Below are positions 346-39,392 of a stretch of 58,647 bases of DNA, piece by piece. The stretch's first letter is position 1, and every line of letters begins with the position of its first letter. Source of the DNA: an uncultured Bacteroidales bacterium (GTDB taxonomy: Bacteria; Bacteroidota; Bacteroidia; Bacteroidales; Paludibacteraceae); contig CALZRN010000001.1 of NCBI GenBank assembly GCA_945828585.1, positions 1 to 58,647 of the forward strand, written 5' to 3'. Under the pieces are notes generated by a model. The model was given only the letters and a program-made list of their open reading frames with translations, was not told the origin of the DNA and did no database searches. A program made the position numbers and the translations under genes.

Positions 346-1653
346 TCATGCAATTTTTTTATACACTCCATATTTGATTTTTAGGATCAAGCCGACTGTT
401 TGCCACTCATCATTCCAACGTAGAGCCGTTGCGCGGGAAATACCTTGAGAGGCGGCTTCGGCGACGAGGGTTTTGGATTCAAACTCATCGGGGAGTAGAG
501 AGAGGAGGATCTGCTTCTGGTCGAGGGGTTTGACGGCAGGGGTTTCGATGGGTTTGGAGCCTTGGATGAGCTGGTACGCCTGCGCCATGTGGAGGATGAG
601 TTTGTTACCGATAAGCTCGGCGGTAGCGTAGTCGATATCTGAACAGAGGAGGGGCTCGGAACTAAAGTCCCGAGAACTAGCCGAAGAGGAACCGGAATAC
701 AATTCCGGGCTAATAGACGAAGAGGGAGAAACAGACATACCTCTCAATGCCGTGAGAATCATCGCGATGCGCTCGATATGGACGGCCATACGCAGGATGA
801 CGGAGTGGAAATCCAGACCGAGGAGACGGACGAGCGTGGGGTACGCGGTCTTGAGGTGGGCGCCAAGACGGTCGCGTTGGTCGTGCGTAAGGGCGAACTC
901 ACGGGGCTTGGAAGCGAGCAAGCGCCCATAGAGATGGTAGAGCTGCTCTGCGCAGGTGTGGATGGTCTCGCCGGAAGGGTCCGAAGGCTGCACATAGCGC
1001 TCGGAGAAGGGCTGGACATCCTCCACGATGAGGGTCAGGAGACGCGAGAAATATCCGTTCTCCACCGAAGGCACGAGTGCGCGGTACTGGCTGAAGGTAC
1101 CGGTGAGCACCATCGAGAGTTGGGGATTCTCGATGACCGACGCCTCACGGCAACGGGCACGCGAAATGGGTTCATGCTCGGCTGCCTTGCGAAGAGCGGT
1201 GTTGTAATTCGCAGTAGAGGAGCGCCAGATGTCGGTAATGACGGAGCCCTCGGACTCATGGATGTAGCCGCGGCCGTGCTGACGCGCGAGGGTCTGGTAG
1301 AAAGCCGGATAGGTCGCGTCGCCCGCGATAATAAGAGGAGTAGCCTCATGGATGGGTTTGACGAGTTCGAGGGCGAGGTTGGCGATTCCCTTTCCGCACG
1401 CCGCCGAACCGACGATAAAGAGCTGGAGGGACGGGTAATAGCGCTTGGCGGCGATGCCATAGCGGCAGTAGAGGTTCGGCATGACAGCTCCGCAAGCGGT
1501 CAGAGTAGCCATGAGCAACATGTCTTTCTCGGCGGGCGTTTGCGCGAGCGAGAGAACGGATTGCAGGAACGGCGGCAGGTTGGATCCATCCATGTTCGAC
1601 ACGATGTGGAGGTTAGCCTGCTCCTCCGGGTTTAGGTTTTGATTTTCGTTCAT
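346..1653 (-). CDS. DUF3987-family protein (mobile-element associated, putative primase/helicase-like NTPase with C-terminal HTH)
   Basis: 435-aa ORF with a P-loop-like IVGSAACGKG. Overall resemblance to DUF3987 proteins of Bacteroidota integrative elements. C-terminal HTH-like segment GISRATALRWNDEW. Confidence 0.6.
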   Translation of the reverse strand: MNENQNLNPEEQANLHIVSNMDGSNLPPFLQSVLSLAQTPAEKDMLLMATLTACGAVMPNLYCRYGIAAKRYYPSLQLFIVGSAACGKGIANLALELVKPIHEATPLIIAGDATYPAFYQTLARQHGRGYIHESEGSVITDIWRSSTANYNTALRKAAEHEPISRARCREASVIENPQLSMVLTGTFSQYRALVPSVENGYFSRLLTLIVEDVQPFSERYVQPSDPSGETIHTCAEQLYHLYGRLLASKPREFALTHDQRDRLGAHLKTAYPTLVRLLGLDFHSVILRMAVHIERIAMILTALRGMSVSPSSSISPELYSGSSSASSRDFSSEPLLCSDIDYATAELIGNKLILHMAQAYQLIQGSKPIETPAVKPLDQKQILLSLLPDEFESKTLVAEAASQGISRATALRWNDEWQTVGLILKIKYGVYKKIA

Positions 1654-1997
1654 AACGTTAATAAATAATTATAGGTTATCAGTAGTGTCTACTAAAAATA
1701 CAACAAAAACAAAGATAAACCCTTTGAGTGCTTTAGAAGCGATGCTTCTTTGACAAATTGATACTCAAACCTGCTTGTAAGCAAGCTCACAGACAGCTTT
1801 TACTACCAATTAGCCAACTCTAGCGAGTATAAAGCACTCAAAGACATAAACCGAAAAAAAATTTTCAAATCACATCCGTTCACTCAAAATGTCAGTATGA
1901 GTGGTTGAGTGGACAGTAGTAATAGGTTATAGTTAAAAAATAGTTGATCAGAAAACCCGAAAACGATGAGACACGTGGTTTAGGTTTCTCAAATCGA

Positions 1998-2035
1998 GTG
2001 CAAAGATACTACAAAAAACGTCCTTTGGAAAGGAC
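1998..2035 (-). promoter_or_regulatory. Bacteroidota-type promoter (-7 box TAtcTTTG) upstream of the DUF3987 gene
   Basis: The + strand CAAAGATA at 2001-2008 is TAtcTTTG on the minus strand. It lies about 345 nt upstream of the ATG at 1653, implying a long leader. Confidence 0.45.
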
Positions 2036-2067
2036 AAACAAAAAAAGTGACGTCACGTGACATCACT
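2020..2067 (-). terminator. Tandem intrinsic terminator hairpins after the 365-aa ORF
   Basis: Hairpin AGTGACGTCAC/GTGACATCACT (2046-2067) is followed on the minus strand by a T-run. A second hairpin GTCCTTTGGAAAGGAC (2020-2035) is followed by GTTTTTTG. Confidence 0.55.
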
Positions 2068-2088
2068 TTTGAAGGATTAATGAGGTGA

Positions 2089-3186
2089 TTATTTGAGGTG
2101 ATTTTTACGGTAAGATTTGGGCTTGTAATTCATCCTCTTGCCCAATGAATTGGGGTCAACAGGCCATCCGAAGATAAAGGTCAGTTGGTCGCATAAAACT
2201 GTCCTCTCGTGCAAAGAAACATAATTTTTGAAATTTTCGTCGTATTTCGACCGCTCGCGGATATACTGACACGCTCCTACATAGTCATTTTTCGCGGGAG
2301 CAGGAGTTACCTCATCCAAGAAAAGTTCCTGACGAAGATCTTTTCGTTGAGGTTTTGGGGTATCCAAATGCAGTTGCGCCGTAAGATAGCCCTCCCACTC
2401 CGTCATCCATCGGCGGAAGGAGGCTTGGTCTTCGGGATCGAGGGTAGCCAGTTCGTCGCTCAAAAACACCCAGTCCGTCTCCTGGGAGAGGATGAAGGAG
2501 CGGTCGGCGGAGGTGATTTTGGAGCCGGGTATTCCCTGCTTCATCGCCACATATTCGTCGGAGAGCCAGAGGAGGTACCGCTCCATGATGTCGGCGGCTT
2601 TCTCGCCCTCAAAAAAGAAGGTAGGTTCTTCCGTCTCATCGGGTATATCCGCGAGTTGGATGACAGTCGGGATATCGGTCCAATCGGTTTGGAGCAAACG
2701 CTGGCGGCGTGTCTCGACGCGTGCGGCGTCTATGAGCCATTGGGCGAAAGGCATTTTCCAGGGCATGGCCTCCCATATATGTTCCCCGAAAGGCTCCAGC
2801 ACCAGCCGGCGCATGTAAGTCGTCAGCAGCTCCATCACGAGGGTGAGGAGGCGTCTATTGGGGCATAGATCGATGAGGTTGTTCGGGTCATCGATAAACT
2901 GGACGTAGTTATCGCGCAGTTGGTCTATTTCGGCAGAGAGATAGCCCCAGTCGTCACGCAGGACCTCGCGGTCGTAAAGGGCGAAGAAGGCCTCTTTCTC
3001 GTCGTCCGTATAGAGGCGGATGCCGCGGGCGTTGCCTTCGGGCGTATCGACGAGGAAGACCGCCGCGAGGGCAGCACCGAGAAATCCGCCGAAGACGAAC
3101 TCATCCTCGCCATCGGGGCCGGAGATATAGAGCCGATGCGACTCGTAGCGCATGGAGGAGGAGAAGATGTAGTCGGAGAGGAGCAT
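2089..3186 (-). CDS. hypothetical protein (last gene of the accessory block)
   Basis: 365-aa ORF with coding-like composition and no motif I recognise. A 27-nt spacer separates it from the upstream gene, and terminators lie downstream. Confidence 0.6.
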   Translation of the reverse strand: MLLSDYIFSSSMRYESHRLYISGPDGEDEFVFGGFLGAALAAVFLVDTPEGNARGIRLYTDDEKEAFFALYDREVLRDDWGYLSAEIDQLRDNYVQFIDDPNNLIDLCPNRRLLTLVMELLTTYMRRLVLEPFGEHIWEAMPWKMPFAQWLIDAARVETRRQRLLQTDWTDIPTVIQLADIPDETEEPTFFFEGEKAADIMERYLLWLSDEYVAMKQGIPGSKITSADRSFILSQETDWVFLSDELATLDPEDQASFRRWMTEWEGYLTAQLHLDTPKPQRKDLRQELFLDEVTPAPAKNDYVGACQYIRERSKYDENFKNYVSLHERTVLCDQLTFIFGWPVDPNSLGKRMNYKPKSYRKNHLK

Positions 3187-3233
3187 GGATTAGGGGGGGG
3201 GGGGATTAGGGGATTAGCGATTTTCGATTAGCG
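3187..3233. repeat. GATTAG word repeat with embedded G12 homopolymer
   Basis: Sequence is ggattag-G12-attaggggattagcgattttcgattagcg, with the G run at 3193-3204. It spans the stop of the DUF3737 gene and ends next to the ATG at 3186. Confidence 0.9.
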
Positions 3234-3990
3234 AGCCGGGGAGGGGATCGACGATGGAGGGGAGTTCGCCGAGGATGGTTGCACGGACGGAGGATTTCTC
3301 GAAGGCGCGGTCGGTGTCGGGCGCAAAAGAGCAATCTTCGAGAACGAGGTTCTCGGCATAACAAAGCGGTTGCGTACCGGAGATTCGGCAGCGGACGAGG
3401 CGGAGGTTCTTGGAGTACCAGCCGAGGTACTCGCTCTTGATCTCGGAGTCGTAGAGAGTGCAGTCTTCGCTGTTCCAGAAAGCGTCTTTGGTATCGAGGA
3501 CGGCGTTATGGATCTCGAGATTACGGGCGTACTGGAAGGTGTATTTGCCTTGTAATTGGATATTTGTAATTTGTAATTTGTCGGAATGCATAAAGGCGTA
3601 AGTAGCTTGCTCGATTTGGAGGTCGGAGATCTCGCCGGTACGGCAGTACCAGAAGGCTTCCGCGCCATCGGTTATCTTGATTCGCTCCAGAGTCAGGCGG
3701 TCTATCTCACGGAAGGCTTTGGGCGCATCGATGAGGCAGTCAAAGAGACGGAGATCGCGGCAGTACCAGAGCGGCGCGCGGTCAGAGGATGCGAAATAGC
3801 AGTTGCGGCAGGTGACGTCCTCGCACTCCCAGATGACGTACCTGCCCTCGAAACGGCAGTTGTCAGCGAGGATATGGCGAGACTCTTTGAGTCCCGACTC
3901 GCCTTCACCGATGGTGACGCGGGAGAGTTGGAGATCGCGGGAGGCGTATAAGGGGCGCTCGCCGGAGAAAAAGGTATCAGAGATTTTCAT
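3214..3990 (-). CDS. DUF3737-family protein (beta-helix-like repeat protein)
   Basis: 258-aa ORF. N-terminal FSGERPLYASRDL and a repetitive beta-helix-like pattern resemble the DUF3737 family. The C-terminal LIENR-stop is encoded by the GATTAG repeat. Confidence 0.55.
   Translation of the reverse strand: MKISDTFFSGERPLYASRDLQLSRVTIGEGESGLKESRHILADNCRFEGRYVIWECEDVTCRNCYFASSDRAPLWYCRDLRLFDCLIDAPKAFREIDRLTLERIKITDGAEAFWYCRTGEISDLQIEQATYAFMHSDKLQITNIQLQGKYTFQYARNLEIHNAVLDTKDAFWNSEDCTLYDSEIKSEYLGWYSKNLRLVRCRISGTQPLCYAENLVLEDCSFAPDTDRAFEKSSVRATILGELPSIVDPLPGSLIENR
3550..3581. repeat. GTAATTTG/CAAATT word repeat inside the DUF3737 CDS
   Basis: ttgtaattggatatttgtaatttgtaatttgt is read in frame as LQITNIQLQ. 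Confidence 0.8.
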
Positions 3991-4008
3991 TTTTTCGGGA
4001 TGACGGGA

Positions 4009-5688
4009 TTACGAATAGAGGTAGCGTTTGAGGGTTTGTTTCTCGGTGCGGGCGAGGGGTTGGTCGGTGATCACGACGTCGTAGAGCTGGGAGAAGAGAG
4101 GGAGGGACGGATTGACGGCGCGGAGGATCATGCGGCGGAGAGAGGAAGAGGGACTAGACGCACTAGACGCACTAGACTCACTAGACGCACTAGTCTCACT
4201 AGTCTCACTAGTCTCACTAGAGGGAACAACGATAGCGACGAGATGACCATCGCGGGCAAGGACGATGGATTCGGAGACTTCGGGGAGGGCGTTGATGAGG
4301 GATTCGATGTTGTCCGGGTGGATGTTCTCGCCGTTGGGGAGGACGATGATGTCCTGCTCCAGACGGCCTTCTACATAGAGATAGCCGTCCTCGTCCAAAT
4401 GACCTTTGTCGCCGGTATGGAGCCAGCCGTCGGAGTCAATCTTACGGGCGGTAGCTTCGGGGTCTTTGTAATAGCCGAGCATGACGTTCTCGCCTTTGAC
4501 CAGGATCTCGCCGGCAGGGGAGATGCGGCAAGTCATGCCGGAAACGATTTTGCCACAAGTTCCAAATTTATACTCGGAGCAAACAGAATAACTGATTAAA
4601 GGTCCTGTTTCTGTCATCCCGTAACCTATGGATATAGGGACCTTTTCTGCCATCAATGTTCTTTCTGTATTTTTATCAAATAAGGCTCCTCCTATATATA
4701 TTTGTTTACAGTTTTCTTTCAAAAGCACAACGCAGTCTTGATGCGCACGCATTAAGCCTGATACCAATTGAGGTATCAGTCTTAATGCGTATGGGCGCGT
4801 TATACATATAGACTTATAAAGATTTTCAATGGTTAATAATGAGCACAATATGTATATGTACTTTCCTTTCAACAATTGTCCTATTATCTCTGTCATAAAA
4901 CCGTATATATGAGACATAGGAAGGACAGAAAGAAAAGCATTTATGTCATCATCAGGGTAACCATCTATAATGTTTTGGGAGTTGTTACTCATGTTGCGAA
5001 TAGACAACATTATTCCCTTTGCACTACCCGATGTTCCCGACGTAAAACAGATCATAGCGAGGGAATCGGGAGCGGAGGGAGGGAAGCTGACTATTGAGGG
5101 GCTAGAGGGACTAGAGGGACTAGACGCTCTAGTCTCACTAGTCTCACTAGTCTCACTAGTCTCACTAGACGAACTAGACGAACTAGACGAACTAGATACA
5201 CTAGATGCACTAGATGCATTGGAAGCTATAATGGATGTTCCGGATGCGAGAGATTCAAAATTTTCAAGGGAAATGATATTTGCGACTTGCGGCATAGGCT
5301 GACTCTTTAATTCCGCCCAGATGTCCGGGTCGGTAAAGAGGGCTTTGGCATCGGAGAAAGCGACCAGACGGGCTATCTCATCGGGCATGAGGGTATGCAT
5401 GACGGTGACGGAGACACCTTGCATCTTAGCGATCGCGAGATAAGCGATTGCCCAATGGGCGGAGTTGGCTCCGCAGATGGCAATATGGTCACCCTTTTGC
5501 AGACCAAGGGCGGTAAGGAGATCCGCTACGCGGCAGAGTTCCGCATACATCTCGCCGTAGGTATAGTGGTTGCCACGGGTGGTATCTTGGGCGGTACCGT
5601 CCTCCGTGAGATAGAAGTCCGTGAGGGCGGGAGCATCCCAGTTATTGCGGATAGTTTCCGCGAGGATATTTAAGTAGTTTTCAGTCAT
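4009..5688 (-). CDS. AMP-dependent synthetase/ligase (fatty-acyl-CoA / acyl-AMP ligase-like)
   Basis: 559 aa with adenylate-forming motifs TSGTSGSAKG, GYGMTETG and GWLHTGDKG. It carries two Ser/Glu/Thr-rich in-frame tracts encoded by CTAG arrays. Confidence 0.85.
   Translation of the reverse strand: MTENYLNILAETIRNNWDAPALTDFYLTEDGTAQDTTRGNHYTYGEMYAELCRVADLLTALGLQKGDHIAICGANSAHWAIAYLAIAKMQGVSVTVMHTLMPDEIARLVAFSDAKALFTDPDIWAELKSQPMPQVANIISLENFESLASGTSIIASNASSASSVSSSSSSSSSSSETSETSETSETRASSPSSPSSPSIVSFPPSAPDSLAMICFTSGTSGSAKGIMLSIRNMSNNSQNIIDGYPDDDINAFLSVLPMSHIYGFMTEIIGQLLKGKYIYILCSLLTIENLYKSICITRPYALRLIPQLVSGLMRAHQDCVVLLKENCKQIYIGGALFDKNTERTLMAEKVPISIGYGMTETGPLISYSVCSEYKFGTCGKIVSGMTCRISPAGEILVKGENVMLGYYKDPEATARKIDSDGWLHTGDKGHLDEDGYLYVEGRLEQDIIVLPNGENIHPDNIESLINALPEVSESIVLARDGHLVAIVVPSSETSETSETSASSESSASSASSPSSSLRRMILRAVNPSLPLFSQLYDVVITDQPLARTEKQTLKRYLYS
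4151..4224. repeat. CTAG-N5 array, 8 units, exact 9-bp phase (inside ligase CDS)
   Basis: CTAG at 4154, 4163, 4172, 4181, 4190, 4199, 4208 and 4217. Translated as SSETSETSETSASSESSASSASS. Confidence 0.95.
5099..5218. repeat. CTAG-N5 array, 13 units, exact 9-bp phase (inside ligase CDS)
   Basis: CTAG every 9 bp from 5102 to 5210. Translated as SSASSVSSSSSSSSSSSETSETSETSETRASSPSSPSSPS, just upstream of the TSGTSG motif. Confidence 0.95.
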
Positions 5689-5707
5689 AGGCGATTTTGG
5701 GGGAATA

Positions 5708-5838
5708 GAGGGACTAGTCTCACTAGTCTCACTAGATGCACTAGTCTCACTAGACGCACTAGTCTCACTAGACGCACTAGTCTCACTAGATGGACTAGTC
5801 TCACTAGAGGAACTAGAGGGACTAGCCTATCTAGTAGT
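5708..5838. repeat. CTAG-N5 array, 14 units, exact 9-bp phase (intergenic)
   Basis: CTAG every 9 bp from 5714 to 5831. The last unit supplies the TAG stop of the four-helix-bundle gene. Confidence 0.95.
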
Positions 5839-6472
5839 CTATTCCGTGGGATTGGAGGATGTTTTGCAGGCGGAGAACTTCGCGCTCCAAGAACGCGAGA
5901 CGCTCCTTCTCGGCTTGCCGGTAGCCGGTACGAGCCGCGTGCATGCGCTCTTTGATGCCGCCTTCCTTGACAAACTGCTCTTCCAGTTGGTGCAGGTATG
6001 TGGTCATCATCTTGTCCACCATGTGGCACAGGGTTAGTGCCAGATTGCAAAACTCCTCATCGGATATTTTGTTGATTAGTTCTTTATACTCTTCGAAGGT
6101 ATTATGCTGGCGGCAAAAGGTCAGCATATCCCCATACCGGGCATGCGATTTGTCCCACCGGATAAGATTCTTCCGATTGAGATAATCGTTATAGTCCCGT
6201 TGTAACTCCTGAATACTCGACCGCGCCACATTGAGCAGATTGATCTCCATCTGTGTACTGGTCATACCGTCCTCCGAGCCCTCGACTATATTCTGTTTGC
6301 CGCTCCGGCTCGCCTGCACCATCTGGTCCACCGTGCGGTCGCCATGCTTGGGCAAGAAGCGCTCGCAGAAAATAACCGTCATTTGGAAGAGCGCGTCGGA
6401 TTTCTGGTAGAAATAGAGATTCTTCCAATTGGCAGGGCGGCGAAGAATGGTGTTGTAGGTGTTGTATTCCAT
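5831..6472 (-). CDS. four-helix-bundle protein (23S rRNA intervening-sequence protein family, with C-terminal suffix domain)
   Basis: 213 aa. The N-terminal YQKSDALFQMTVIFCERF...QMVQASRSGKQNIVEG pattern is typical of the family. The C-terminal part is helical. Confidence 0.7.
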   Translation of the reverse strand: MEYNTYNTILRRPANWKNLYFYQKSDALFQMTVIFCERFLPKHGDRTVDQMVQASRSGKQNIVEGSEDGMTSTQMEINLLNVARSSIQELQRDYNDYLNRKNLIRWDKSHARYGDMLTFCRQHNTFEEYKELINKISDEEFCNLALTLCHMVDKMMTTYLHQLEEQFVKEGGIKERMHAARTGYRQAEKERLAFLEREVLRLQNILQSHGIDY

Positions 6473-6485
6473 AGGATGTATTTTT

Positions 6486-6549
6486 TTGCTAGTCGGGCTA
6501 GTCTCACTAGACGCACTAGAGAATCTAGAGGGGCTAGAGGGACTAGATA
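6486..6549. repeat. CTAG-N5 array, 7 units, exact 9-bp phase (intergenic)
   Basis: CTAG every 9 bp from 6489 to 6543. The last unit supplies the TAG stop of the ACP gene. Confidence 0.95.
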
Positions 6550-6782
6550 TTTCGAGCTATGTAGTCGTAGAGGTCCTGGAGGGTAATGAGGGCCTTGATT
6601 TCGGGTTGGATGATGGGGCAGCCAAAGGTCTTTTGCACAAATGTGGCTATCGCTACTGCATCCACACTGGTAATTCCCAAATCACGGCGAAGTTCCGCAT
6701 CGGGAGTTATCTGCGAAGGGTCGAAATCCAGCGTGTCGATGAGAAACGCATTCGTTTGGGATATGATTTGTTGTTTAGTCAT
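6543..6782 (-). CDS. acyl carrier protein (dedicated, second ACP in window)
   Basis: 79 aa with a phosphopantetheine attachment-like DLGITSVDAV. Size and helical pattern fit carrier proteins. Confidence 0.8.
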   Translation of the reverse strand: MTKQQIISQTNAFLIDTLDFDPSQITPDAELRRDLGITSVDAVAIATFVQKTFGCPIIQPEIKALITLQDLYDYIARNI

Positions 6783-6821
6783 ATCGTTTCATAACAAGTA
6801 TTCAGTATTCAATATTTGATT

Positions 6822-6860
6822 GGCAAAGGTACTGCTTTTTTTTGAGATATGCAAGTTTTT
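6822..6860 (-). promoter_or_regulatory. Bacteroidota-type promoter internal to the accessory block (upstream of the ACP gene)
   Basis: The minus strand reads CTTGCATATCTCAAAAAAAAGCAGTACCTTTGCC. The -7 box TAccTTTG corresponds to + 6824-6831. Confidence 0.65.
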
Positions 6861-6869
6861 TTTGGAAAA

Positions 6870-6907
6870 ATCGATTAGGGATTAGCGATTTTCGATTAGA
6901 GGATTGC
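6870..6907. repeat. GATTAG word repeat (near-identical to 3205-3233)
   Basis: gattagggattagcgattttcgattag matches the copy at 3205-3232 except for one G. It encodes the LIENR-stop of the PSD-like gene. Confidence 0.9.
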
Positions 6908-7967
6908 CGACTTTGACGATTTTAGGGGTGATATGCGGGGCCTTGCCGGGTTCGAAGAAAAGGACGATGTCGCTGCCGCCGAAGAGGAAAGAGCCTAACT
7001 CAGTGCCCTGAGTTAATTTATGATTTATGATTTCAGATTTATGATTTATGAAAGTCCACCGGACGGAGGAGACTTGCTGGACGCCGACGGCGACAAGGGC
7101 GATTTTGCCGAAAGCGGGTGTGTCCAGGATGAGGACACCACGCGTCTCCAACATCTGAAAATCGGTCATGCCGAGTTGGTCATAGCGATACCTACCCTGC
7201 TCTTCGTCCCAGATAATGACACCTCCGCCGGCATGAATGCCTTCGATGGTCTTACATTCCAGCACCGTTCCGTCGCAAGGCGCATGGAAACGATGGTAGT
7301 CAAAGACATCGAGGACGATATGCGTCGTCTCGCCGCCAGCGAAGCACTCTCGATACGGGCTATCGCCGAGCAAATCCAGCCAGTTAGCGATAGACGCGGT
7401 CTTGACCGGCGCAAAGGCGATTTCGCCGTCGCAAGGGGAGAGGAAATTTCGTAATGACGTAATTACGTTTTCCCGTAATTCCGTCTTCAGCCCTCTGGCA
7501 AAAAAGTCATTCCACGAATGCCAATGGTCGGGCGACTCATAGCGATCGGTATCGAGTTCAAAGCGCGCGTCCGTACGCGCGATATTATAATAAGAGTCGT
7601 TCCAGCTATCCGGTCCGCTGAGCCATTTACCCCAAGCGGTATTATAGGCCTTGAGCCAAGCCGCCACTCGCGGTTCGTACTGAAGAGAGGGATAGATGTA
7701 GCCCTTATCGCGCAGGGCATCCAGCGGTTGGTCCAAAAGAAAATAGAAATAGCCGATATTCTGGTCAATGCGGCGGAAGAAGGAAGCGTCCTCGCCGATG
7801 TCCATCCCTTGCCAGGGCATACAATGCGCGAAACGCTCCACATAGGCGCACCACTCCTCCACCGTCCGCACGGGGTTCGTCTCCCGATGGGGATTGGCGA
7901 TAGCGGCTTGGTCCAGAGATTGCTTCAGGAGACAACGGAGGGATATGTTTTCTATAAAGGGCTGCAT
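6882..7967 (-). CDS. phosphatidylserine-decarboxylase-family pyruvoyl decarboxylase, long form with extra N-terminal domain (PsiD-like architecture)
   Basis: 361 aa with PSD-like motifs WNDFFARGLK, SPCDG and ELGSFLFGGSDIVLFF. The N-terminal extension of about 140 aa is absent from the short housekeeping psd at 45126. Confidence 0.65.
   Translation of the reverse strand: MQPFIENISLRCLLKQSLDQAAIANPHRETNPVRTVEEWCAYVERFAHCMPWQGMDIGEDASFFRRIDQNIGYFYFLLDQPLDALRDKGYIYPSLQYEPRVAAWLKAYNTAWGKWLSGPDSWNDSYYNIARTDARFELDTDRYESPDHWHSWNDFFARGLKTELRENVITSLRNFLSPCDGEIAFAPVKTASIANWLDLLGDSPYRECFAGGETTHIVLDVFDYHRFHAPCDGTVLECKTIEGIHAGGGVIIWDEEQGRYRYDQLGMTDFQMLETRGVLILDTPAFGKIALVAVGVQQVSSVRWTFINHKSEIINHKLTQGTELGSFLFGGSDIVLFFEPGKAPHITPKIVKVGNPLIENR
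7015..7052 (-). repeat. ATCATAAAT-family element, copy 1 (in frame inside PSD-like CDS)
   Basis: The minus strand reads tcataaatcataaatctgaaatcataaatcataaa, translated as INHKSEIINHKL. Confidence 0.9.
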
Positions 7968-7986
7968 ACTAGATGGATTAGATAGA

Positions 7987-9090
7987 CTAGCTCTCTAGTA
8001 ACCATTCGACATATTTGCGGACAAGGGATGCAAAGCGGCGGATAGAGGATTCTTTATAATGGGTAGCGGAGTAGCGGAACCATAGCGACAAATCCTGCGG
8101 ATGCTCATGAATCTCTACATCGAGGAGGGCATAGGCGTATTTGGGCTCATATTCCATATCCGGTACCCGCAGCACATTCACTGCATAATTCCAACGCTTG
8201 TTATACGGCGCAGTCAGCGTATAGGGATAATCGCTATGCGCTATACCCGATCGGATTTGATTACGAGCCTCGCGGATCAAATCCGATTTAGGATTGGAGA
8301 TTTGAGATTTGATATTTTTTATTTGGAAAGGAATATCGCGATGGAGACTACCGAAGATAGGTTGTTCTTCAGGTGTTTCGCGTCCCTCGTATGCCCATGT
8401 AAGCGCCGCATCGTCTGTGCCGCAATACTCCGCTATCGCCAAGGCGGTACAAAGCGAGAAAAGCCCCTCATAAGAGAGGTAATGCGCCTCAGAGAAGGTT
8501 TGTATTTTCTCCTGCAAATCGGAATAATCCGATTTATAGATTCCCGGTTTGGGAGGAAGAAGAGTGAACAACCTTTTCCGATCAGTCGTCGGACGGACAG
8601 GAACGGAGGTATTGGCGAATTCGTTAATCAGCCAATCTTGGCTGATACGATAATGCGGGTCTGTCTTATGCTGCTCAAAACGCGCTACATAGCCCCAGTA
8701 ATTATCCGGTTCCAAGGGTAAACCTTCGTACGCACGGCGGATATCATCTAATAATATCTCTCCGCTCTTCCCATCGCCTAAGATGCGGCTTATCTGTGCT
8801 TGGATTATTAAATCCTCGTCTTTTATCTTCAGGTCTATATCATGATACGGGCCATGGAGTATATCTTTCAGGGGTGATGGATAATGATTGCCCCCTCCAT
8901 CCACACGTATCTGAAAAACAGGATGGTTCGCCAAAGCAGTACGGATAGCTTGCTCTATACGGTTTTGCTCCTTTGCTCCTCCGCGCCACACGTAGGTGAA
9001 CGGAAAGGAGTACACTCCCGGCAGCCACCTCGTCATATCATAGACGAGTTGAGAAAAAGGAAGAAGCGGATAGGTTAAATAATAGCCCAT
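7987..9090 (-). CDS. condensation (C) domain-like protein with substituted active-site motif
   Basis: C1-like PLLPFSQLVYDM and C2-like ALANHPVFQIRV are present. C3 reads SRILGDGKS where HHxxxDG is canonical. Start chosen at MGYYLTYPLL (9090); the ORF is open to 9150. Confidence 0.5.
   Translation of the reverse strand: MGYYLTYPLLPFSQLVYDMTRWLPGVYSFPFTYVWRGGAKEQNRIEQAIRTALANHPVFQIRVDGGGNHYPSPLKDILHGPYHDIDLKIKDEDLIIQAQISRILGDGKSGEILLDDIRRAYEGLPLEPDNYWGYVARFEQHKTDPHYRISQDWLINEFANTSVPVRPTTDRKRLFTLLPPKPGIYKSDYSDLQEKIQTFSEAHYLSYEGLFSLCTALAIAEYCGTDDAALTWAYEGRETPEEQPIFGSLHRDIPFQIKNIKSQISNPKSDLIREARNQIRSGIAHSDYPYTLTAPYNKRWNYAVNVLRVPDMEYEPKYAYALLDVEIHEHPQDLSLWFRYSATHYKESSIRRFASLVRKYVEWLLES
8285..8326. 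repeat. CAAATCTCCAAT-family word repeat inside the C-domain-like CDS
   Basis: gatttaggattggagatttgagatttgatattttttatttgg is read as QIKNIKSQISNPKS. It shares the 12-mer CAAATCTCCAAT with 10430-10464. Confidence 0.8.
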
Positions 9091-9959
9091 ATTATTCCCC
9101 CTGCAATAATGATTAAGAATAAGACTCCGCATAGTTGCGGAGTGAACCAAGGTTTCTCTACTACCACCGGTTCTGCTTCTACCAAATCGCCCACATACCT
9201 CAGCATCGGTTCACCGTTGATTGTTGCGGTCGACCACACCTCCAACAAATCCGTTGGAAAAATGATTTTTTGCTTAGGCGACTGCATCTGCGACAAAGAC
9301 CTGCCTGCTGTTATACGAAATCCCAATAGCGTCCAGGGGTAATTTTCCACATGCTCCTCCGCTATCTCCATTGCTGATTTAGTCCGGTATTTTTCCGACC
9401 AGTTATACTTGATTTGGGCAGGAGAAAGGGCTTTCTCTACATATCGTAGAATAGTATTCGTACAACCGAATTTCAACAGATCCATCTGCATATCATTCTC
9501 CGTCAACATATGATTATCCATCTGCTCCCAGAGACGTTGCTCAGCATCAGCAGGCATATTAATGCGGTATTCATGCACAGCGCGTTTCCACACACGGTAG
9601 TCCTCAACGTACTCGTTAGTCGGTATTGCAAACATACCCATTTTTAGTTTGCCCGTTAGATAATCCCAGAGTTGTCCTTTGATCTTCTCACTCTCGTAAC
9701 TAAAACAATAATCCAAACCGAACGTAGGGCATTGCAGTCGCAGGAACGCATGACCGGTAATGCCGAGATAATCCTGGCTCTGGTCTGTCGGATCAGCAAC
9801 ACAGAGGGATACGAGAACAAAATCCGGGGCGAGGCGGTCGATGGTATCGTTGAAACCCTGCGCGGCATTCCGCTCCGCGACAGAAAGCGAATCCTGTCCC
9901 TTCGCCACAACGGAAAGGGACAGGATAGCCAAGCTGATTATCGTATGCATCCAACGCAT
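9075..9959 (-). CDS. DUF4105 (Lnb N-terminal periplasmic domain)-like protein, signal peptide plus C-terminal TM helix
   Basis: Start chosen at MRWMHTIISLAILSL (signal-like). GHAFLRL motif typical of DUF4105. C-terminal hydrophobic LCGVLFLIIIAGGIIWAII. Overlaps the next gene by 16 nt. Confidence 0.6.
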   Translation of the reverse strand: MRWMHTIISLAILSLSVVAKGQDSLSVAERNAAQGFNDTIDRLAPDFVLVSLCVADPTDQSQDYLGITGHAFLRLQCPTFGLDYCFSYESEKIKGQLWDYLTGKLKMGMFAIPTNEYVEDYRVWKRAVHEYRINMPADAEQRLWEQMDNHMLTENDMQMDLLKFGCTNTILRYVEKALSPAQIKYNWSEKYRTKSAMEIAEEHVENYPWTLLGFRITAGRSLSQMQSPKQKIIFPTDLLEVWSTATINGEPMLRYVGDLVEAEPVVVEKPWFTPQLCGVLFLIIIAGGIIWAII

Positions 9960-10143
9960 GGTAATCTGCTTTGAGAGATTAGTCAATCTCGCTGCTGACA
10001 CGCTCTGGAGCACCCGGGTGAGGAGGCACGGGAATGGATGTAATAGGACTACCATCCAATAAGCATTGGGTCAAATTAACTTGCTGAATCTCCATGAGAG
10101 GAGTGATATATATTTTCTTTTCCATAAAGCCATTTATTTTCGT

Positions 10144-10169: not shown

Positions 10170-13100
10170 TTATTTAACTAATTGTCCGTCGATGGTGTAA
10201 ACCTTCTCACCACGGATGATGAAGACTTGATTATTGATCAGCACCTTCTTTGTCTCACCTTGCGCATCCACAACCGCTTCATCGATGCCGGTAGCCACTT
10301 GCGGTGCTTTGGCGCTGACGCGCAAACCGTAGTTAGCGGCAGTGCCCTTCTCCAGATGGAGTACATAATCGCTTTCCGTAAGATTCCAGATAGCTTCGCC
10401 ATTGCGAGTCAGATAGAGGGTATAAGCCTCATTTGACATTTGAGATTGGACATTGGAGATTTGGAACTCACCTGCTCTCGGAACATAGATACCCAATGGG
10501 AACTCGGCCACGTTATTGACAGGAGTCATCGTATTCATACATAGTTTCGCATCATAACGATCCACCCACATCTGCGCAACCGTATTGCTTACGCCGAATT
10601 TCACTACATCCTGACCAAGTGTATAGGTATCTGCTTCTTTATCTTCATTCGTATGGATAAAGAGGCGATCCTGCATTCTGCCATAGGAAGCTATCTCCAC
10701 TTGGAATTCTGCTTTTGGAGCCTCGGAAGCCGCATTGCGACGAACAGGAGCCGGTGCCGGAGGAGTGGTAACAGCCGAAGCCGTTCCGTTGTTAGTAGCC
10801 TGCACGAAGATCGGTTTTGCCACAATGAGTTTGGTGCTCAATGCAACCGGTTCGTAACTCTGGGCAGCGGCATTGAAGACTTGTCCTACCGCAGCACCGG
10901 TATTGCTGAGGTACGCATGGAAGATAGCGGGGTTTGCAATACCATTCCAGTTAGCATTTTTCGGTTCATCCGATCCATACATTGAGACGTTGGTTTCTGA
11001 TGTAAGGATCGGTGCTCCTAATTTCTTCGGGAATCGGAGTACGGAAGCGTCGTTCTGGAGATAGAGCATATAGAGACGACCCGGAACGAGCACATCGCCA
11101 TTCGACAGGTATTTCCAACATGCATCTACTTTATCTTGTGCTGCACGCACAGAGCCATCGTAGTAAGCGAGATAATCGCCACTCATCAGAGAGAGTGCAT
11201 TGCCATTAGCGCGGATATCACTTGCCGTTACTTGCCAAGGTACTGCTACCGCGTACCACTTGCCGGCGGTGAATGTACCGGTAAGGTCGTAATAGCAAAC
11301 ACCCGTGACATTAAGATTATTAATATTACCCGTCAACTGACCGGAAACCGTTCCGTTGGAGTGCAGAACCAGCTGGTTCACGGTAGTTTCCTCCGCGATA
11401 TTCTGCGCTTGACCCAAACCAACCTCCATGATCACTTCCGTAGCAGCAAAATGCGCATAATAAGTTGCATTGGCCGTAGCTTTCGGCGTCATATTGTTCT
11501 TATAGAACGTACCAGCACCATTCGGCTCTGTTGTCCAACCATCGAAAGTGAAAGTAGATTGAGCTGTAGCGGGTTTAGTCGGGATAGTGCCTGTATAGAT
11601 AGTCGCGGTGTTCGCTTTCTGACCAACAGGTTCTACCAAGTTGGCAGAACCATCCTCGTTCTTCCATGTGATTGTATAATCCGGGTTTGACACCGTGAAG
11701 TTAGCTACCAGATTGATATCGCCGGTAATAGCCATCTGACGTATTGTATTCGTACCGCCTTGACCATCACTCCAACCGGTAAAAGTATAACCACTATTCG
11801 GTGTGATAGTAATGGTAACGGCATTTTCAGATGCATTATAATCATAAATACCCGCCCCGGAGATTGCACACGCACCAGAAGGATTACTCATTACGGATAC
11901 CGTATATTTGTTGAGAGTTTCATCAAATACTGCCGTATAAGTAGCATCCCCCATCACGGTTTGGATCTGCGGTTCCCATCTAAGAGCATAGGTGTACTGC
12001 GCATCTGCGTCTTTTGTAGGAGTATTAGCACAAATAGGCGTCTCACCGTATTGGTACTGATGGCTCTCGATAATATCTGCCGGATCGTCCGGGCTACCAT
12101 TTTCCTTTATGAATTTGATTGTATAGGTCTTCGCTACTTCGCGATAAACGGCAGTATAGGACTTGACGCTCGTCGCAGAAACTTCTTCCAAAGCAGGCGA
12201 CCAATGGTCAAACTCATACGTAAACTCGTTCGTAGCAGGTTTGCCGCTCGGATTAGCCGGAGCAACCGGCATAGCACCTACAGCTACCATATACGGTTCT
12301 TCACCCGTCGGTTTGAGTTTGGTAGTACCATCATAGTCAAAGAACGTAACAGCATACTCCGTCGGTGGTTCTTCGAGCCATGTAGCACGATAGATAGCAT
12401 CGCCTGTAACCGCTGCGATAGCCGGTTCCCACTCCAAGGTATGACCTACTTTTGTTGGGGTATTCTCGCAGACAGGCACCTCGTTATGGGTAAGGAACTG
12501 ACGCTCAATCTCCACACCACCTTCGTTTTGGAAGATGATGGTGTACATACGCGGTTTCTGAGTGAACGTAGCCGTATAGGTCACATCGGAAGTTACCTTG
12601 CCCAGCGCCGGAGACCAACCTGCGAAGTCGTAGGTATAGTCGATTGTTGCCTCACGCATCGGGTTGGTTCCAAGGAACTCCGCCATTGTGCCATAGGTAA
12701 CGCTATAACTATCTTGAAGTCCTCCATCTGCATCTGCTGTTTTGATAATAGTACCATCATAGTTTTTCCAAGTGATCGTAAAGCGTTTTTCGTCCCAATG
12801 AGCTGGGATCATTACTTCTGGTTCCATTGGATCTGGGGCTTCTTTTTGCCAGTAATAATAAGTATCATTATTGGGGTGGATGCAATGATAGAGGTTGTCC
12901 TTCTTCTCCACCTCCCACCATTGACAGTTCTCTAGGAGGATGAAGAGACGGCCGGCGCCATCTGCATCGGAATAGGTGTGGTCGGCGTTGGGCGTTGTAC
13001 CGTTCGCCACTGCCACATATTCCTGCGGTTTTGCATAATAGGTATCTCCAGTCTCAGCGTTGTGCTGCACCATGAAACATCCTTCATTCGTCATAGTGGA

Positions 13101-16100
13101 CCATTCGTCATTCTGATAGCAATATGCATCGCCTTCCTGAGCAGTGCTCGTATTAGCGTATGCAGGATCGGAAACGCCGTTCTTCAGTTTAGCAGGGAAG
13201 AAAGTCCGTTCCTCGAAGTTACCGCTTCCTTTTACGTTATTTACCGTTCTTTCACCGGCATCTTCTGCCGATTCATTGAATATAAATGTACCGGCATCTT
13301 CATTATTGGAGAAGATGTTCGCGCCATGCTCAGAACAATACACGAATCCTGTTGCAGTCATGAACGAGCCATGTACATTGATTGCAGCATCAGGCGGACA
13401 AGTTTGTTCATCACGCTTGGTTGGACGCCCATTCCATGATGGTGCATAACGCACCACTTTGGTGTAAGCTGTGTTCTTTTGGAAATTCAAACCATCATAC
13501 TCGTTGCAGTAAGCATATTTATCCCAATCCTCCGCATCGTAAACATAGAGTGCACCGGTATGCTCGGTGTCATCCGGATCCATTGCCACCGTAACTGTAG
13601 CCTCTTTATCTACCTCTACCTCTGCTCCTGGTAACAGGCTGGTGTTCTGTTGGAAGTCCATTGATCCTGAAAGGAGGTGTATCTTAAAGTTACACGTAAG
13701 CGGCAAGTCAAATTTAGCTGAATTCAAGCGAATAGGAATGGTTCCAAATTGTAATAAATTGACATCACCCATATCCAATACCATCGAACCAATATGTGCG
13801 GCACTATTGATATCATATACCTGAATATCATTTTCTGCATCATACCATTTGCGCACCCAAGTATTTTCGGCATCCGCCATCTGATCCATCAGGAAGATAG
13901 CCTGATGTTGACCACTCACGCCTACAATAGCAATATCCGTAGCTGCCATGGAAATACTCATGCCCAAGAGGCCTTCCGACACAGCCGCCGAAGTAGAGAG
14001 CACAGCACCCGGGTGATATTTCACCGGAGACTCAATATTCTGGATGAAATACTGGGTTACAGGGAAGATTTTTTTGTCGCTATGATCAGTCACTATATCG
14101 GGCGCCATACCAGTAATTCCGACAGATGTAAATGCTCCCTTCCAGTCGCCTAACTGGAACATCTCACGTACAGTAGCACCACGACGAGCATCCATCTCGC
14201 CCTTACCGGTTACGAATCCCCAAGCACGCACTTCCGAACCGGATTGCAGTGTTAGATGGCTACCTTCATCCAATACCAAATGGCCGTAAGCACCGCAGGG
14301 TTGCGCCGTGTAAGCCTCGTTGCTAGCGTATTGTGAACAGGTCAGTTCTATATGACCAAACACATCCATATGGACGCCCGGCGCAAAGGTCAGACGACGG
14401 AACTCTGTTGGCTGGATAGTGACGTACGGTGTTGATGGTCTCTGGTCGTTAAACACTACACGCGGAGCAGTCATGTTTACTTCTTTCTCCTGAGAGTCAC
14501 TCATCGGAACTACGATGGTCGCATTAGCAGGAAGTGTATAGTAACCGGCAGGCAAGGTGTAGTTGTTGGTCATGAAGATGACGATATTCTGTACATCAGG
14601 ATTGTTATTCGCGAATGCTATAGCATCTTCCAATTTAGCATAAGACACATTGCCTATACGGCAAACGCCTGCACCGTTAGCCACCGCCGACTCGGCAGTA
14701 CCCAAGAAATAGCGATAGCCCTCATTATATTCCACACCGGTGGAGACCAACATTTCCGTCAACCCCTCGGTGTCAATACCGTAGTTGTTATTCGTTTTGA
14801 AATAACCGGAAGTGAAGTTTATCGTGCCGTCTAACGCGCCGTCGAATTTACCGCTCTCTACGATCAACGTTCCGCTCGTTTGTTGAGCAGAATAGGTTCC
14901 ACCCTTGATAGCGGCCAGTTTTTTTGTAGTAGCCTCACCGCCGGTTACTTTCAGACCGCAAGCAGCACCTTCTATCGTACCGCGATTGATAGCCGCCGTA
15001 CCACCGGAAACGGTCACAGCTGTTTCGCCCTTGAACGTACCGCCATTAAGCACAAGCGTTTTGCTCGATGTCAAACCATCGTTGAAAGCTCCTTCGGTAG
15101 TGGTCAGCGAACCGGCATTGGTTGCTGCACCGGTTATGATAGCACCATTCTGCTCTACTGTACCATCTGCTCCGATAGTTAGCGAACCGAACGTACCGCC
15201 GTTGAGGATTGCTTTACCTCCATTCACAGCCAGCGAAGTAGCCTTTCCTCCAAACTTACTATAGGCGAAAGTCACCTTGCCGCTTGAAACAGTGATAGTC
15301 TGAGTTTCATTACCATTCAAATCCAGCGTGAAGTTCTTGCCGGCGAAAGTAAGATCATCATCCACAGGCTTGTTAAGTTTAATAATAGGATCTGAGTAGC
15401 CCCTGATATCCGTTCCTAAGATTTCAGACAGAGTACCACTTGTCGGACTTGCATCTTCTTTACCTTCTAACAAGAAAGCCGCCGGACGCTCCGGATCCAA
15501 AGCGTTCACTGACAGATTGATATTCAATGACGAAGGACTTACGCCCGCCATGCGGATAGTCATAACGGAATTTTTCAGCCCAACACCGGTATTCTTGTAC
15601 GTATAGGTAACAGGAATAGTGATTCTTGTTTTTTGTGCCGAAACAACCTCTTTAGAAGCCAAAGCCGTTTCCAAATCGTATGCCCATTCATTGCCGTCGT
15701 TATTGGTAAAAGCAAAAGTGCCAAAATCCGCTGCATCCAGCGAAGCGGCATCACCGTTTACTTCGACAGTAACTGTTAGATGGGCTTGCTTGTTCTCCTC
15801 CGCTTCCAAACCGGCACTGGTTGCCACCGAATTTCCCAAGAGATACTTGTTAAACACCGCATAGAGATTATTTGGATTGGTCCCAACAGATGCCGCCAAA
15901 GCTGCAAGTGCTGCACCTCCGTCAATAGGAGGGTAAAGTGTGCTGTTCCCTTTATCCGGAAGCACTTTAAAGCAGGGAGTTTTGTATTCTATATCGCTTC
16001 CATTTCCCATCGGGTCAGCAGGACTCATAGAGCTTGTCATACGTGTGATTGCAAGATCGTTAAACGTCCATTCCGCAAGATAGGAACCAACAGCAGGCTC

Positions 16101-19245: not shown

Positions 19246-19281
19246 TTACCATTTAGTCATTTAGCATTTACCATTTATTTC
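19243..19281. repeat. CATTTACC/CATTTAG word repeat filling a gene junction
   Basis: catttaccatttagtcatttagcatttaccatttatttc spans the helicase ATG (19245) and the SDR stop (19275). Confidence 0.9.
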
Positions 19282-20852: not shown

Positions 20853-20880
20853 TTATGATTTATGATTTCAAATTTATTTC
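20850..20880 (-). repeat. ATCATAAAT-family element, copy 2 (5' of the SDR start codon)
   Basis: The minus strand reads gaaataaatttgaaatcataaatcataaATG. The ATG is the SDR start at 20852. Confidence 0.9.
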
Positions 20881-29992: not shown

Positions 29993-30003
29993 GCTAATTT
30001 GTT

Positions 30004-30033
30004 AAATCATAAATTTGAAATCATAAATCATAC
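30004..30033 (+). repeat. ATCATAAAT-family element, copy 3 (5' of the ychF start)
   Basis: aaatcataaatttgaaatcataaatcatac lies immediately before the ATG at 30034. Confidence 0.9.
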
Positions 30034-32272: not shown

Positions 32273-32315
32273 GTGCAAAAGTACTGCTTTTTTGCGATAT
32301 GACCAAATATTTTTG
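32273..32315 (-). promoter_or_regulatory. Orphan Bacteroidota-type promoter
   Basis: The minus strand reads AAAAAAGCAGTACTTTTGCACCG. The -7 box corresponds to + 32276-32283. Confidence 0.5.
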
Positions 32316-36414: not shown

Positions 36415-36452
36415 TTGGTCATTTATTTAGCCATTTGGCCATTGAGGTACTC
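36389..36452. repeat. CATTTACC/CCATTTGG word repeat filling a gene junction
   Basis: atatttaccatttgctcatttaccatttggtcatttatttagccatttggccattg spans the U32 start and the asd stop. It encodes MVNEQMVN and NGQMAK-stop. Confidence 0.9.
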
Positions 36453-39347: not shown

Positions 39348-39392
39348 GTGCAAAATTACTGCTTTTTTCTCGAATATGCAAATTTTTTTGCC
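39348..39392 (-). promoter_or_regulatory. Bacteroidota-type promoter for acpP-fabF
   Basis: The minus strand reads TTTGCATATTCGAGAAAAAAGCAGTAATTTTGCACCG. The -7 box corresponds to + 39351-39358. Confidence 0.65.

Follow-up and report, generated by a model that had tools for sequence, protein, structure and literature searches.

A conserved gene cluster of uncultured gut Bacteroidales as a candidate acyl-amide or aminolipid pathway

We analyzed a 58,647-nt stretch of DNA (contig CALZRN010000001.1; hereafter referred to as the window) from an uncultured rumen Bacteroidales bacterium of the family Paludibacteraceae, and found that eight co-directional minus-strand genes at 2089-9959 contain a widely conserved but undescribed gene cluster. 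Its members are an Lnb_N/DUF4105-like protein, a stand-alone condensation-domain-like (C-like) protein, a long decarboxylase-like protein of the phosphatidylserine decarboxylase (PSD) family, a dedicated acyl carrier protein (ACP), a class I adenylate-forming ligase (acyl/aryl-AMP ligase, hereafter AMP-ligase) and a DUF3737 protein, and the arrangement resembles the free-standing ligase, carrier and condensation logic of a Clostridial fatty-acid-amide (FAA) pathway with several differences. On the evidence of its genes, we tentatively read the cluster as a pathway of the nonribosomal peptide synthetase (NRPS)-like type to an acyl-amine, acyl-amide or aminolipid with a periplasmic Cys/His acyltransferase step, a reading whose chances we put slightly short of even. 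The first-pass annotation of this DNA had proposed an acyl-amine or aminolipid module spanning all eight genes. We found that the ligase, the ACP and the condensation- and PSD-type proteins do form one unit, that the identities given to the C-like, Lnb-like and PSD-like proteins need correction, and that six of the eight genes belong together while the other two are passengers.

Gene content of the cluster

The tight packing and the coordinates of the eight genes were borne out both by the listing of open reading frames (ORFs) and by independent gene calls on two metagenome contigs (L001 and L002) that encode identical proteins. In the order of transcription, the genes (all on the minus strand) encode the Lnb-like protein (9075-9959, 294 aa), the C-like protein (7987-9090, 367 aa), the PSD-like, pyruvoyl-type decarboxylase (6882-7967, 361 aa), the ACP (6543-6782, 79 aa), a four-helix-bundle protein with a suffix domain (5831-6472, 213 aa), the AMP-ligase (4009-5688, 559 aa), the DUF3737 protein (3214-3990, 258 aa, without a signal peptide) and a 365-aa protein without a family match (2089-3186), which is probably a passenger. 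Four junctions described earlier proved exact, namely a 16-nt overlap at 9075-9090 and gaps of 19 nt (7968-7986), 18 nt (3991-4008) and 27 nt (3187-3213).

Profile hidden Markov model (HMM) searches, which had been suggested as a check on the domain assignments, placed every domain above its curated Pfam cut-off: Lnb_N (PF13387, 28.7 bits vs 22.2) in the protein at 9075-9959, Condensation (PF00668, 49.1 vs 30.6) at 7987-9090, PS_Dcarbxylase (PF02666, 103.5 vs 22) at 6882-7967, PP-binding (PF00550, 33.1 vs 20.8) at 6543-6782, AMP-binding (PF00501, 205 vs 29.9) at 4009-5688 and DUF3737 (PF12541, 323 vs 23.9) at 3214-3990. Where public annotations give a name to these proteins, it is 'hypothetical protein', 'DUF3737 family protein' or 'phosphatidylserine decarboxylase'.

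The AMP-ligase carries all core motifs of class I adenylate-forming enzymes and an AMP-binding_C_3 domain (28.8 bits). Its best NCBIfam match was a long-chain fatty-acid-CoA ligase subfamily (232 bits, below the cut-off), and its best PDB matches were 4-coumarate-CoA ligase (139 bits), malonyl-CoA synthetase and FadD13. The ACP scored below all AcpP equivalog cut-offs. HMM searches also confirmed that a housekeeping acpP-fabF pair and a short psd gene lie elsewhere in the window, with acpP at 39023-39262, fabF matching TIGR03150 at 592 bits (cut-off 494) and psd (45126-45797) matching NF003678 at 262 bits (cut-off 225). Since housekeeping FabF, AcpP and PSD are encoded there, the ACP and the PSD-like protein of the cluster are extra, dedicated paralogues, in agreement with the earlier proposal. 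For DUF3737, the best 120 of 5241 proteins returned by a homologue search were all close relatives and gave no functional lead, and a full-text literature search on this family found no paper.

Conservation and variation in uncultured Bacteroidales

Proteins of the cluster were found only in metagenome assemblies and metagenome-assembled genomes (MAGs), the closest genome being that of the uncultured rumen Bacteroidales bacterium RUG225 (96% identity in the C-like protein). Among species-representative genomes we collected 38 loci, 37 of which are titled Paludibacteraceae or unclassified Bacteroidales MAGs, with ruminant gut or horse faeces as the stated sources; the one remaining locus is on a 2.4-kb contig that was binned to Candidatus Nanosyncoccus. 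The patterns of the genome scan matched family members only, and the cluster has so far been seen only in uncultured gut or rumen Bacteroidales, mostly Paludibacteraceae.

Comparison of gene neighbourhoods, another check proposed at the outset, revealed a conserved order in the 38 genomes, in which the Lnb-like, C-like and PSD-like genes are followed by a variable insert of 0-5 kb, the ACP gene, usually the AMP-ligase gene, and then the DUF3737 gene. This order holds as far as the contigs reach and down to 41% identity of the C-like protein, and in more distant contigs the set is kept after rearrangement, with the orders DUF3737, Lnb-like, C::PSD, ACP, KS, ACP, AMP-ligase in L048 (where KS denotes a ketosynthase and the double colon a fusion), PSD, Lnb-like, C-like, then KS, ACP, flavoenzyme, KS in L050, and Lnb-like, C::PSD, AMP-ligase in L047. 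No locus departs from the placement of the Lnb-like gene directly upstream of the C-like gene, and the distant L047, L048, L049 and L050 share it. The DUF3737 gene closes the cluster in most sufficiently long genome loci; in L048, where the cluster is rearranged, it stands at the 5' end.

When 1.84 billion representative proteins were searched with a profile, the C-like proteins formed a compact family of about 45 clusters (50% identity), behind which came ordinary NRPS condensation (C) domains. Fusions of the C-like and PSD-like proteins occur in five separate 50%-identity clusters (P0242, P0247, P0252, P0253 and P0255/P0513), one of which has four members, found on different contigs, and another of which was seen in a 61-kb JGI (Joint Genome Institute) contig. 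C-like::AMP-binding::PP-binding fusions were found in two such clusters, and one singleton (P0241) joins Lnb_N, a transmembrane (TM) helix and the C-like domain. This linkage, which survives both rearrangement and fusion, is strong genomic evidence that the core proteins act as one functional unit, DUF3737 included.

In about half of the loci, the insert between the PSD-like and ACP genes contains a ketoreductase (KR) gene together with one, two or three KS genes; some inserts also carry a FabD-like acyltransferase (AT), a FabA/ApeI-like dehydratase (DH), a second ACP and an amine-oxidase-type flavoenzyme. Among the 38 genome loci, the AMP-ligase was not found in those carrying the flavoenzyme. 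ORF and Pfam scans detected no KS, KR or DH genes in the cluster of the window, including the interval 6782-6882. Set beside relatives with KS, KR, FabD-like and dehydratase genes, the window therefore represents the minimal architecture of a variable cluster, a form that is also present in about a dozen other genomes.

In many relatives (loci L003-L046), toxin-antitoxin, defence-type and selfish genes, including HipBA, AbiEii, Fic, Bro-N and ATPase_2/AAA_14 ATPases, lie between the biosynthetic genes and leave them intact (e.g., L007 12343-13733; L016 12306-13433; L022 12299-13813 and 17792-18670). A further variant occurs in L049 (169-9091), where a gene fusing C, A (adenylation) and T (thiolation) domains is flanked by the Lnb-like gene, a weak PMT_2 (ArnT-like) match and a sulfatase-fold protein, whose domain is preceded by an N-terminal region of ~290 aa in an LtaS/EptA-type architecture; no PSD-like gene is visible in this locus. 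The predicted functions in L049 hint at a link with envelope modification.

The C-like protein lacks the catalytic histidine

A PDB profile search with the C-like protein (7987-9090) matched two NRPS C/E-domain (condensation/epimerization) chains only, OaaC of the Clostridial FAA pathway not being among them, and a Foldseek search with a low-confidence AlphaFold2 model (pLDDT, the predicted local distance difference test score, of 57) matched only NRPS C, E and Cy (cyclization) domains. In the PDB profile alignment, 'SRILGDGKS' stands opposite 'HHIISDGWS' and 'HHLVVDGVS', the catalytic second His being replaced by Arg. This Arg is present in 31 of 31 family representatives (as NR in 27, SR in 2 and HR in 2) and in 116 of 120 close homologues, and the nearest outgroup, A-T-C proteins of ~980 aa, keeps HH. 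The other core motifs are strongly conserved (C4-like YW.Y, C5-like GSLHRD.PF and C6-like AHSDYPY). Judged by its sequence, the protein is a member of the NRPS condensation-domain superfamily without the defining catalytic His of the HHxxxDG motif. The earlier assignment as a C domain thus stands as far as superfamily membership is concerned (PF00668, 49.1 bits), whereas condensation activity is not assured, given SRILGDG in place of HHxxxDG and the invariant Arg.

Members of one C-like subfamily (P0249, P0252, P0255-P0259 and P0264-P0271) share a conserved N-terminal extension of 60-80 residues with the pattern …IEQRI…GLT.E.V..G.TP..IA..WLH…, which matched no Pfam family and may be a docking domain.

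The decarboxylase and the Lnb-like protein

In the PSD-like protein (6882-7967), the motifs LDVFDYHRFH and FGG|SD are invariant, DYHRFH being found in 25 homologues and FGG|SD in 34, and self-cleavage at G331|S332 into a pyruvoyl enzyme is therefore likely. Like E. coli Psd and PsiD, the L-tryptophan decarboxylase of psilocybin biosynthesis, the protein belongs to the PF02666 fold family, has the YHRxH motif and carries the G|S site of self-cleavage. It differs from both in its marginal similarity (E = 1e-4 to 1e-5; best PDB sequence matches PsiD, E = 3.6e-5, and E. coli PSD, E = 2.3e-4), in having no PSDC domain (no Pfam match at E <= 0.01) and in its own N-terminal region of ~150 residues, which is highly conserved and matched no known family; moreover, PsiD and Psd are not genetically coupled to a C-like protein. 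The alignment to PsiD takes in the C-terminal half, which bears the insertion, and stops at the cleavage site, where the PsiD chain ends at the aligned GG (...FHFGG opposite FLFGG). None of the NCBIfam PSD equivalog cut-offs was reached (best NF001941, 81 bits vs 371), and a Foldseek search with the model of this protein (pLDDT 49) gave only meaningless matches. The earlier assignment to the PSD family is upheld by PF02666 (103.5 bits); with the equivalog cut-offs missed and PSDC absent, the protein can be called neither a standard PSD nor a proven enzyme of the PsiD type.

The Lnb-like protein (9075-9959) is predicted to have a Sec-type signal peptide, one TM helix at its C-terminus (residues 271-289) and, in the periplasm, an NlpC/P60-like domain. 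H70, E89 and C166 are kept in 43-45 of 45 cluster homologues, with a spacing that appears similar to that of Lnb H49/N66/C148. Lnb is the Bacteroides lipoprotein N-acyltransferase, a protein of 398 aa with five TM helices and an essential Cys148 (PMC11573676). The two have in common the DUF4105/Lnb_N periplasmic domain and an inner-membrane anchor, and apparently also His and Cys residues spaced as in the NlpC/P60 triad of the Lnb/TseH type; the protein of the window differs in its length of 294 aa, its single TM helix, its place inside a biosynthetic cluster and the existence of two paralogous forms. Relatives have either a short form (~300 aa, 1 TM) or a long form (~400 aa, 4-6 TM), and some carry both. 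The first-pass annotation was right about the Lnb_N domain (28.7 bits), but the Lnb equivalog NF051878 was not reached (50.3 bits vs a cut-off of 550), which marks the protein, by sequence comparison, as a distant paralogue rather than Lnb itself, in a family that is mostly single-TM.

Proposed pathway and rival explanations

In the proposed pathway, the AMP-ligase would adenylate a fatty or aromatic carboxylic acid in the cytoplasm and load it onto the dedicated ACP, a step suggested by the domain families and by the C-A-T fusions; where relatives have KS and KR, as many do, these would extend the chain to a 3-hydroxy or longer form, alone or together with the FabD-like enzyme and the dehydratase. 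The PSD-like protein, matured by self-cleavage at Gly331|Ser332, would produce a primary amine by decarboxylating either an alpha-amino acid or a serine-type head group. This second step is suggested by the conserved motifs and by the chemistry of pyruvoyl decarboxylases, which require a substrate with a free amine. The C-like protein, adjoining or fused to the decarboxylase, would then dock the acyl-ACP and couple the acyl group to the amine. The product would presumably be a membrane-active acyl-amine or aminolipid, on which the inner-membrane-anchored Lnb-like Cys/His (NlpC/P60-type) enzyme might carry out a further acyl transfer, or which it might transfer to an envelope acceptor, with DUF3737 as a conserved accessory.

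Several points weigh against this pathway. The C-like protein has Arg where all characterised catalytic C domains, including those of the fatty-acid-amide DHxxxDS type, have His. Arg is also found at this position in the non-catalytic X domain of glycopeptide synthetases, and by this analogy the C-like protein may be a scaffold. The PSD-like protein is about equally distant from PsiD and E. coli PSD, and its substrate is not fixed by sequence; likewise, the AMP-ligase scores about equally with 4-coumarate ligase, malonyl-CoA synthetase and fatty-acyl-CoA ligases, so that the acid cannot be named from the sequence. The AlphaFold2 models of the C-like and PSD-like proteins (pLDDT 57 and 49) are too poor for inference about active sites or substrates, the Lnb-like protein of the window has a single TM helix only, DUF3737 has neither a sequence relative in the PDB nor an assignable role, and all carrier organisms are uncultured.

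In every context the C-like gene has no partner more constant than the Lnb-like gene, a constancy that may instead point to an envelope acylation relay of the Dlt type. Dlt D-alanylation uses the DltA ligase, the DltC carrier, DltB and DltD, and the cluster likewise combines an adenylating ligase and a small carrier protein with a membrane component and a transferase outside the cytoplasm. In such a relay, the ligase and the ACP would activate an acyl or aminoacyl group, a membrane-tethered C-like/Lnb-like pair would move it across or along the inner membrane, and the Lnb-like enzyme would pass it to a lipoprotein N-terminus, lipopolysaccharide or the neighbouring giant secreted protein, the product being a modified macromolecule and not a free small lipid. 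Lnb itself N-acylates lipoproteins via its essential Cys (PMC11573676). The P0241 fusion fits this arrangement, as its Lnb_N domain, TM helix, RRRK stretch and C-like domain obey the positive-inside rule, but it is a singleton on a 2.7-kb contig and possibly a frameshift artefact. L049, with its C::A::T gene beside a membrane-anchored sulfatase-fold protein (LtaS/EptA-type) and a weak PMT_2 match, also agrees with a relay, as do the giant Flg_new-repeat proteins that adjoin the cluster in at least 18 of the 38 genomes and in L048 and L050, although no giant gene lies beside the cluster in many loci (for instance L006, L009, L044 and L047). Unlike the Dlt system, the cluster has no MBOAT homologue or other obvious trans-membrane acyl conduit, and the Lnb-like protein of the window has a single TM helix; the ligase of the cluster is nearer to acyl/aryl-CoA ligases than to DltA. 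The cluster also has a C-like protein and a decarboxylase, and a relay would leave the decarboxylase, though invariably linked, without a role. We consider a Dlt-like relay unlikely.

The replacement of the catalytic His by an invariant Arg, together with the recurrent C-like::PSD-like fusions and the highly conserved N-terminal domain of ~150 aa in the decarboxylase, which matches no known family, would also suit a scheme in which the C-like protein is a non-catalytic docking scaffold and the pyruvoyl enzyme acylates an amino acid in a decarboxylative C-C (Claisen-type) reaction. The enzyme would then be a pyruvoyl analogue of the pyridoxal phosphate (PLP)-dependent alpha-oxoamine synthases (e.g., serine palmitoyltransferase) and yield an amino-ketone or sphingoid-like base, and in principle a pyruvoyl Schiff base should give the same carbanion equivalent as PLP. 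We know of no pyruvoyl enzyme that forms C-C bonds, and the conserved YW.Y, GSLHRD.PF and AHSDYPY motifs argue for a working C-like active site rather than a scaffold. We hold this scheme to be very improbable. Barely credible is the idea that there is no dedicated pathway and that housekeeping paralogues (a second PSD for phosphatidylethanolamine, a ligase and ACP for fatty-acid recycling and a second Lnb) are merely adjacent: the public name 'phosphatidylserine decarboxylase' and the resemblance of the ligase to fatty-acid-CoA ligases speak for it, but all three proteins fall far below the equivalog cut-offs while true housekeeping copies lie in the same window, synteny is strict in 38 genomes and kept through rearrangement and fusion, and the cluster co-varies with KS, KR and DH genes.

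Comparison with known systems and significance

Literature searches on the gene combination and on biosynthetic gene clusters of Paludibacteraceae found no description of this pathway, in agreement with the first-pass annotation, which had not recognised it either. The closest described system is the FAA pathway of gut Clostridia, which uses a free-standing C domain (OaaC), an A domain (OaaA) and an ACP (Chang et al. 2021, as described in PMC13310621). In both systems, one small cluster of a gut anaerobe encodes a separate ligase, a small carrier and a condensation-family protein that stands alone, and the C3 motif is non-canonical. The Clostridial C domains keep the His (DHxxxDS; PMC13310621), whereas the C-like protein has Arg ((N/S/H)RxLGD). 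The Clostridial system transfers acyl-ACP to a small amine taken from the environment; in the cluster described here, a pyruvoyl-type decarboxylase is invariably linked and sometimes fused. Further features set the cluster apart from the FAA pathway, namely the Lnb-like periplasmic enzyme, DUF3737, the KS, KR, DH and AT genes of relatives and the phylum, Bacteroidota.

Relatives of the cluster also recall the aryl-polyene and flexirubin clusters of Bacteroidota and Proteobacteria, which are type II polyketide synthase-fatty acid synthase systems and likewise have KS pairs, KR, a FabA/ApeI-like dehydratase, ACPs, an AMP-ligase and an amine-oxidase/phytoene-desaturase-like flavoenzyme. To our knowledge, the core of C-like, PSD-like, Lnb-like and DUF3737 proteins is not part of known aryl-polyene or flexirubin clusters, and the version in the window lacks the KS, KR and DH genes.

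Paludibacteraceae are abundant in the rumen and hindgut and are known there almost only from MAGs. If the acyl-amide or aminolipid pathway is real, a conserved envelope-lipid or acyl-amide route would imply an unknown class of gut microbial lipids, which could be signalling amides, like the Clostridial ligands of G-protein-coupled receptors, or new membrane or anchor lipids. Two questions of enzymology arise as well, how a condensation-family protein functions with Arg in place of the catalytic His, and what role a pyruvoyl enzyme of the PSD/PsiD family plays once it is hard-wired to such a protein. A more adventurous idea, which we hold to be distinctly improbable, is that the invariant and often fused pairing of a His-less C-like protein with a pyruvoyl enzyme represents new chemistry, either the PLP-free synthesis of an amino-ketone or sphingoid base by pyruvoyl-dependent decarboxylative acylation, or a free-amine lipid serving as anchor or acyl donor for giant surface proteins. 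In the latter version, the periplasmic Lnb-like enzyme could use the lipid on the neighbouring giant secreted (T9SS-type; type IX secretion system) surface proteins. If true, either version would amount to a previously unknown route of protein lipidation or anchoring in Bacteroidota. The minimal six-gene version (3214-9959 minus the four-helix-bundle cassette) is small enough for synthesis and expression.

Transcription signals and upstream neighbours

The internal promoter previously placed at 6822-6860 is plausible, on the grounds of a near-consensus match and of its near-identity to the acpP site. A promoter-like element of the Bacteroidetes type, identified by consensus match only, lies at 6824-6855 on the minus strand; it reads CTTG-N20-TACCTTTG from 6855 to 6824, is one base off the -33/-7 pattern TTTG/TAnnTTTG, and ends 42 nt upstream of the start codon of the cluster ACP. 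It is nearly identical to an exact TTTG-N-TAnnTTTG site before the housekeeping acpP gene (39351-39382, minus strand). The sites at 6824-6855, 32276-32307 and 39351-39382 (all on the minus strand) share an extended, nearly identical sequence (TTGCATAT/TTGGTCATAT…AAAAAAGCAGTAnnTTTG) that goes well past the minimal TTTG/TAnnTTTG consensus. A scan for the sigma-70 consensus, which is uninformative for Bacteroidota, returned 14 sites vs 10.3 expected. Past the last gene, the tandem terminators noted earlier were recovered as two terminator-like hairpins at 2019-2070 (minus strand), one with a 12-bp stem (2070-2043) and the other with a 7-bp stem (2036-2019), each followed by a T-run.

Upstream of the cluster, the giant gene at 10170-16496 (minus strand) encodes a secreted protein of 2108 aa that carries Listeria-Bacteroides repeats (Flg_new, Flg_new_2). 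Its earlier label as T9SS cargo was not confirmed by HMM searches: Pfam and NCBIfam gave no match to a T9SS C-terminal domain (CTD) and only the Flg_new and Flg_new_2 repeats. By eye, a Sec signal peptide can be made out, and we take the tail (…KKVLINNQVFIIRGEKVYTIDGQLVK) to be CTD-like. Beside the rearranged clusters, an Flg_new protein is encoded at 2247-3440 of L048, and a 2892-aa gene lies from 20255 onward in L050. The giant gene was rejected as an obligatory member of the cluster, as it is not beside it in many loci (e.g., L006, L009, L044 and L047). Between the giant and the Lnb-like genes lies a 48-aa ORF (9979-10125, minus strand; MEKKIYITPLMEIQQVNLTQCLLDGSPITSIPVPPHPGAPERVSSEID), which was called as a gene in L001. 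Homologues with the pattern MEKKxYxxPLxEV...GAPxR follow the giant gene in L003, L021, L022, L034 and L035, and weaker matches were found in L004, L005, L011 and L018.

Passenger genes and tandem repeats

In the 213-aa protein (5831-6472), a four-helix bundle is combined with a suffix domain (TIGR04258, 72 bits vs a cut-off of 40), and its gene lies in a passenger cassette (5690-6546, minus strand) with arrays of CTAG nonamers on both sides. The DNA of this gene is 91-97% identical to copies at the same ACP/AMP-ligase junction in L011, L034, L035 and L044, where the neighbouring ACP gene has only 63-65% DNA identity and the 5' end of the AMP-ligase gene 82-86%; L041 also carries the cassette. 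In most related loci the gene is absent from this junction, and in two a divergent copy lies downstream of the ligase. Being missing from most loci and far more conserved in its DNA than its neighbours, the four-helix-bundle protein was rejected as a pathway part. The pattern of DNA identity suggests that the cassette is mobile or recombining, with recent spread or gene conversion to one specific site.

The 365-aa protein had no Pfam or NCBIfam match. Its gene occurs only in closer relatives and always near a DUF3987 gene (346-1653 in the window), and in L032 (5310-7852) the pair lies upstream of the cluster; the gene was rejected as a pathway member because it travels with DUF3987 independently of the cluster. 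The pair (346-3186 in the window, minus strand) is often accompanied by a 133-aa gene on the opposite strand, HipBA-like and AAA-ATPase genes lie downstream of it in L001, and the 3' flank resembles an islet of the mobile or defence kind.

CTAG recurs every 9 bp in the window, with 32 matches to four CTAG-N5 units vs 0 expected, in arrays at 4154-4220, 5102-5213, 5714-5834, 6489-6546 and 55532-55571. Two of these arrays lie in frame in the AMP-ligase gene (residues ~157-197 and 491-517) as lineage-specific inserts, encoding SETSETSET and SSASSASS runs in variable loops. In the array between the four-helix-bundle gene and the ligase gene, L001 and L002 differ by 18 nt (two units) despite encoding identical proteins, which indicates that the copy number of the array is unstable.

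Tandem arrays of the heptanucleotides TAAATCA, CATTTAG, ATTTATG and CGATTAG (3-5 copies) occupy many gene junctions and coding loops, and Tandem Repeats Finder reported 18 period-7 arrays vs 1.1 expected in shuffles. Junction arrays were located at 3212-3234, 6872-6899, 19243-19277, 20851-20868, 30003-30032, 36391-36416, 49042-49074 and 51222-51255, and arrays inside ORFs at 3550-3581, 7016-7051, 8292-8317 and 10430-10463. A 7-nt unit inside an ORF could allow frameshift switching. Heptanucleotide arrays encode the ending ...LIENR* that the PSD-like and DUF3737 genes share, and homologues carry loop inserts with a periodicity of 7 aa, such as INHKSEIINHK and ITNHQSQITN.

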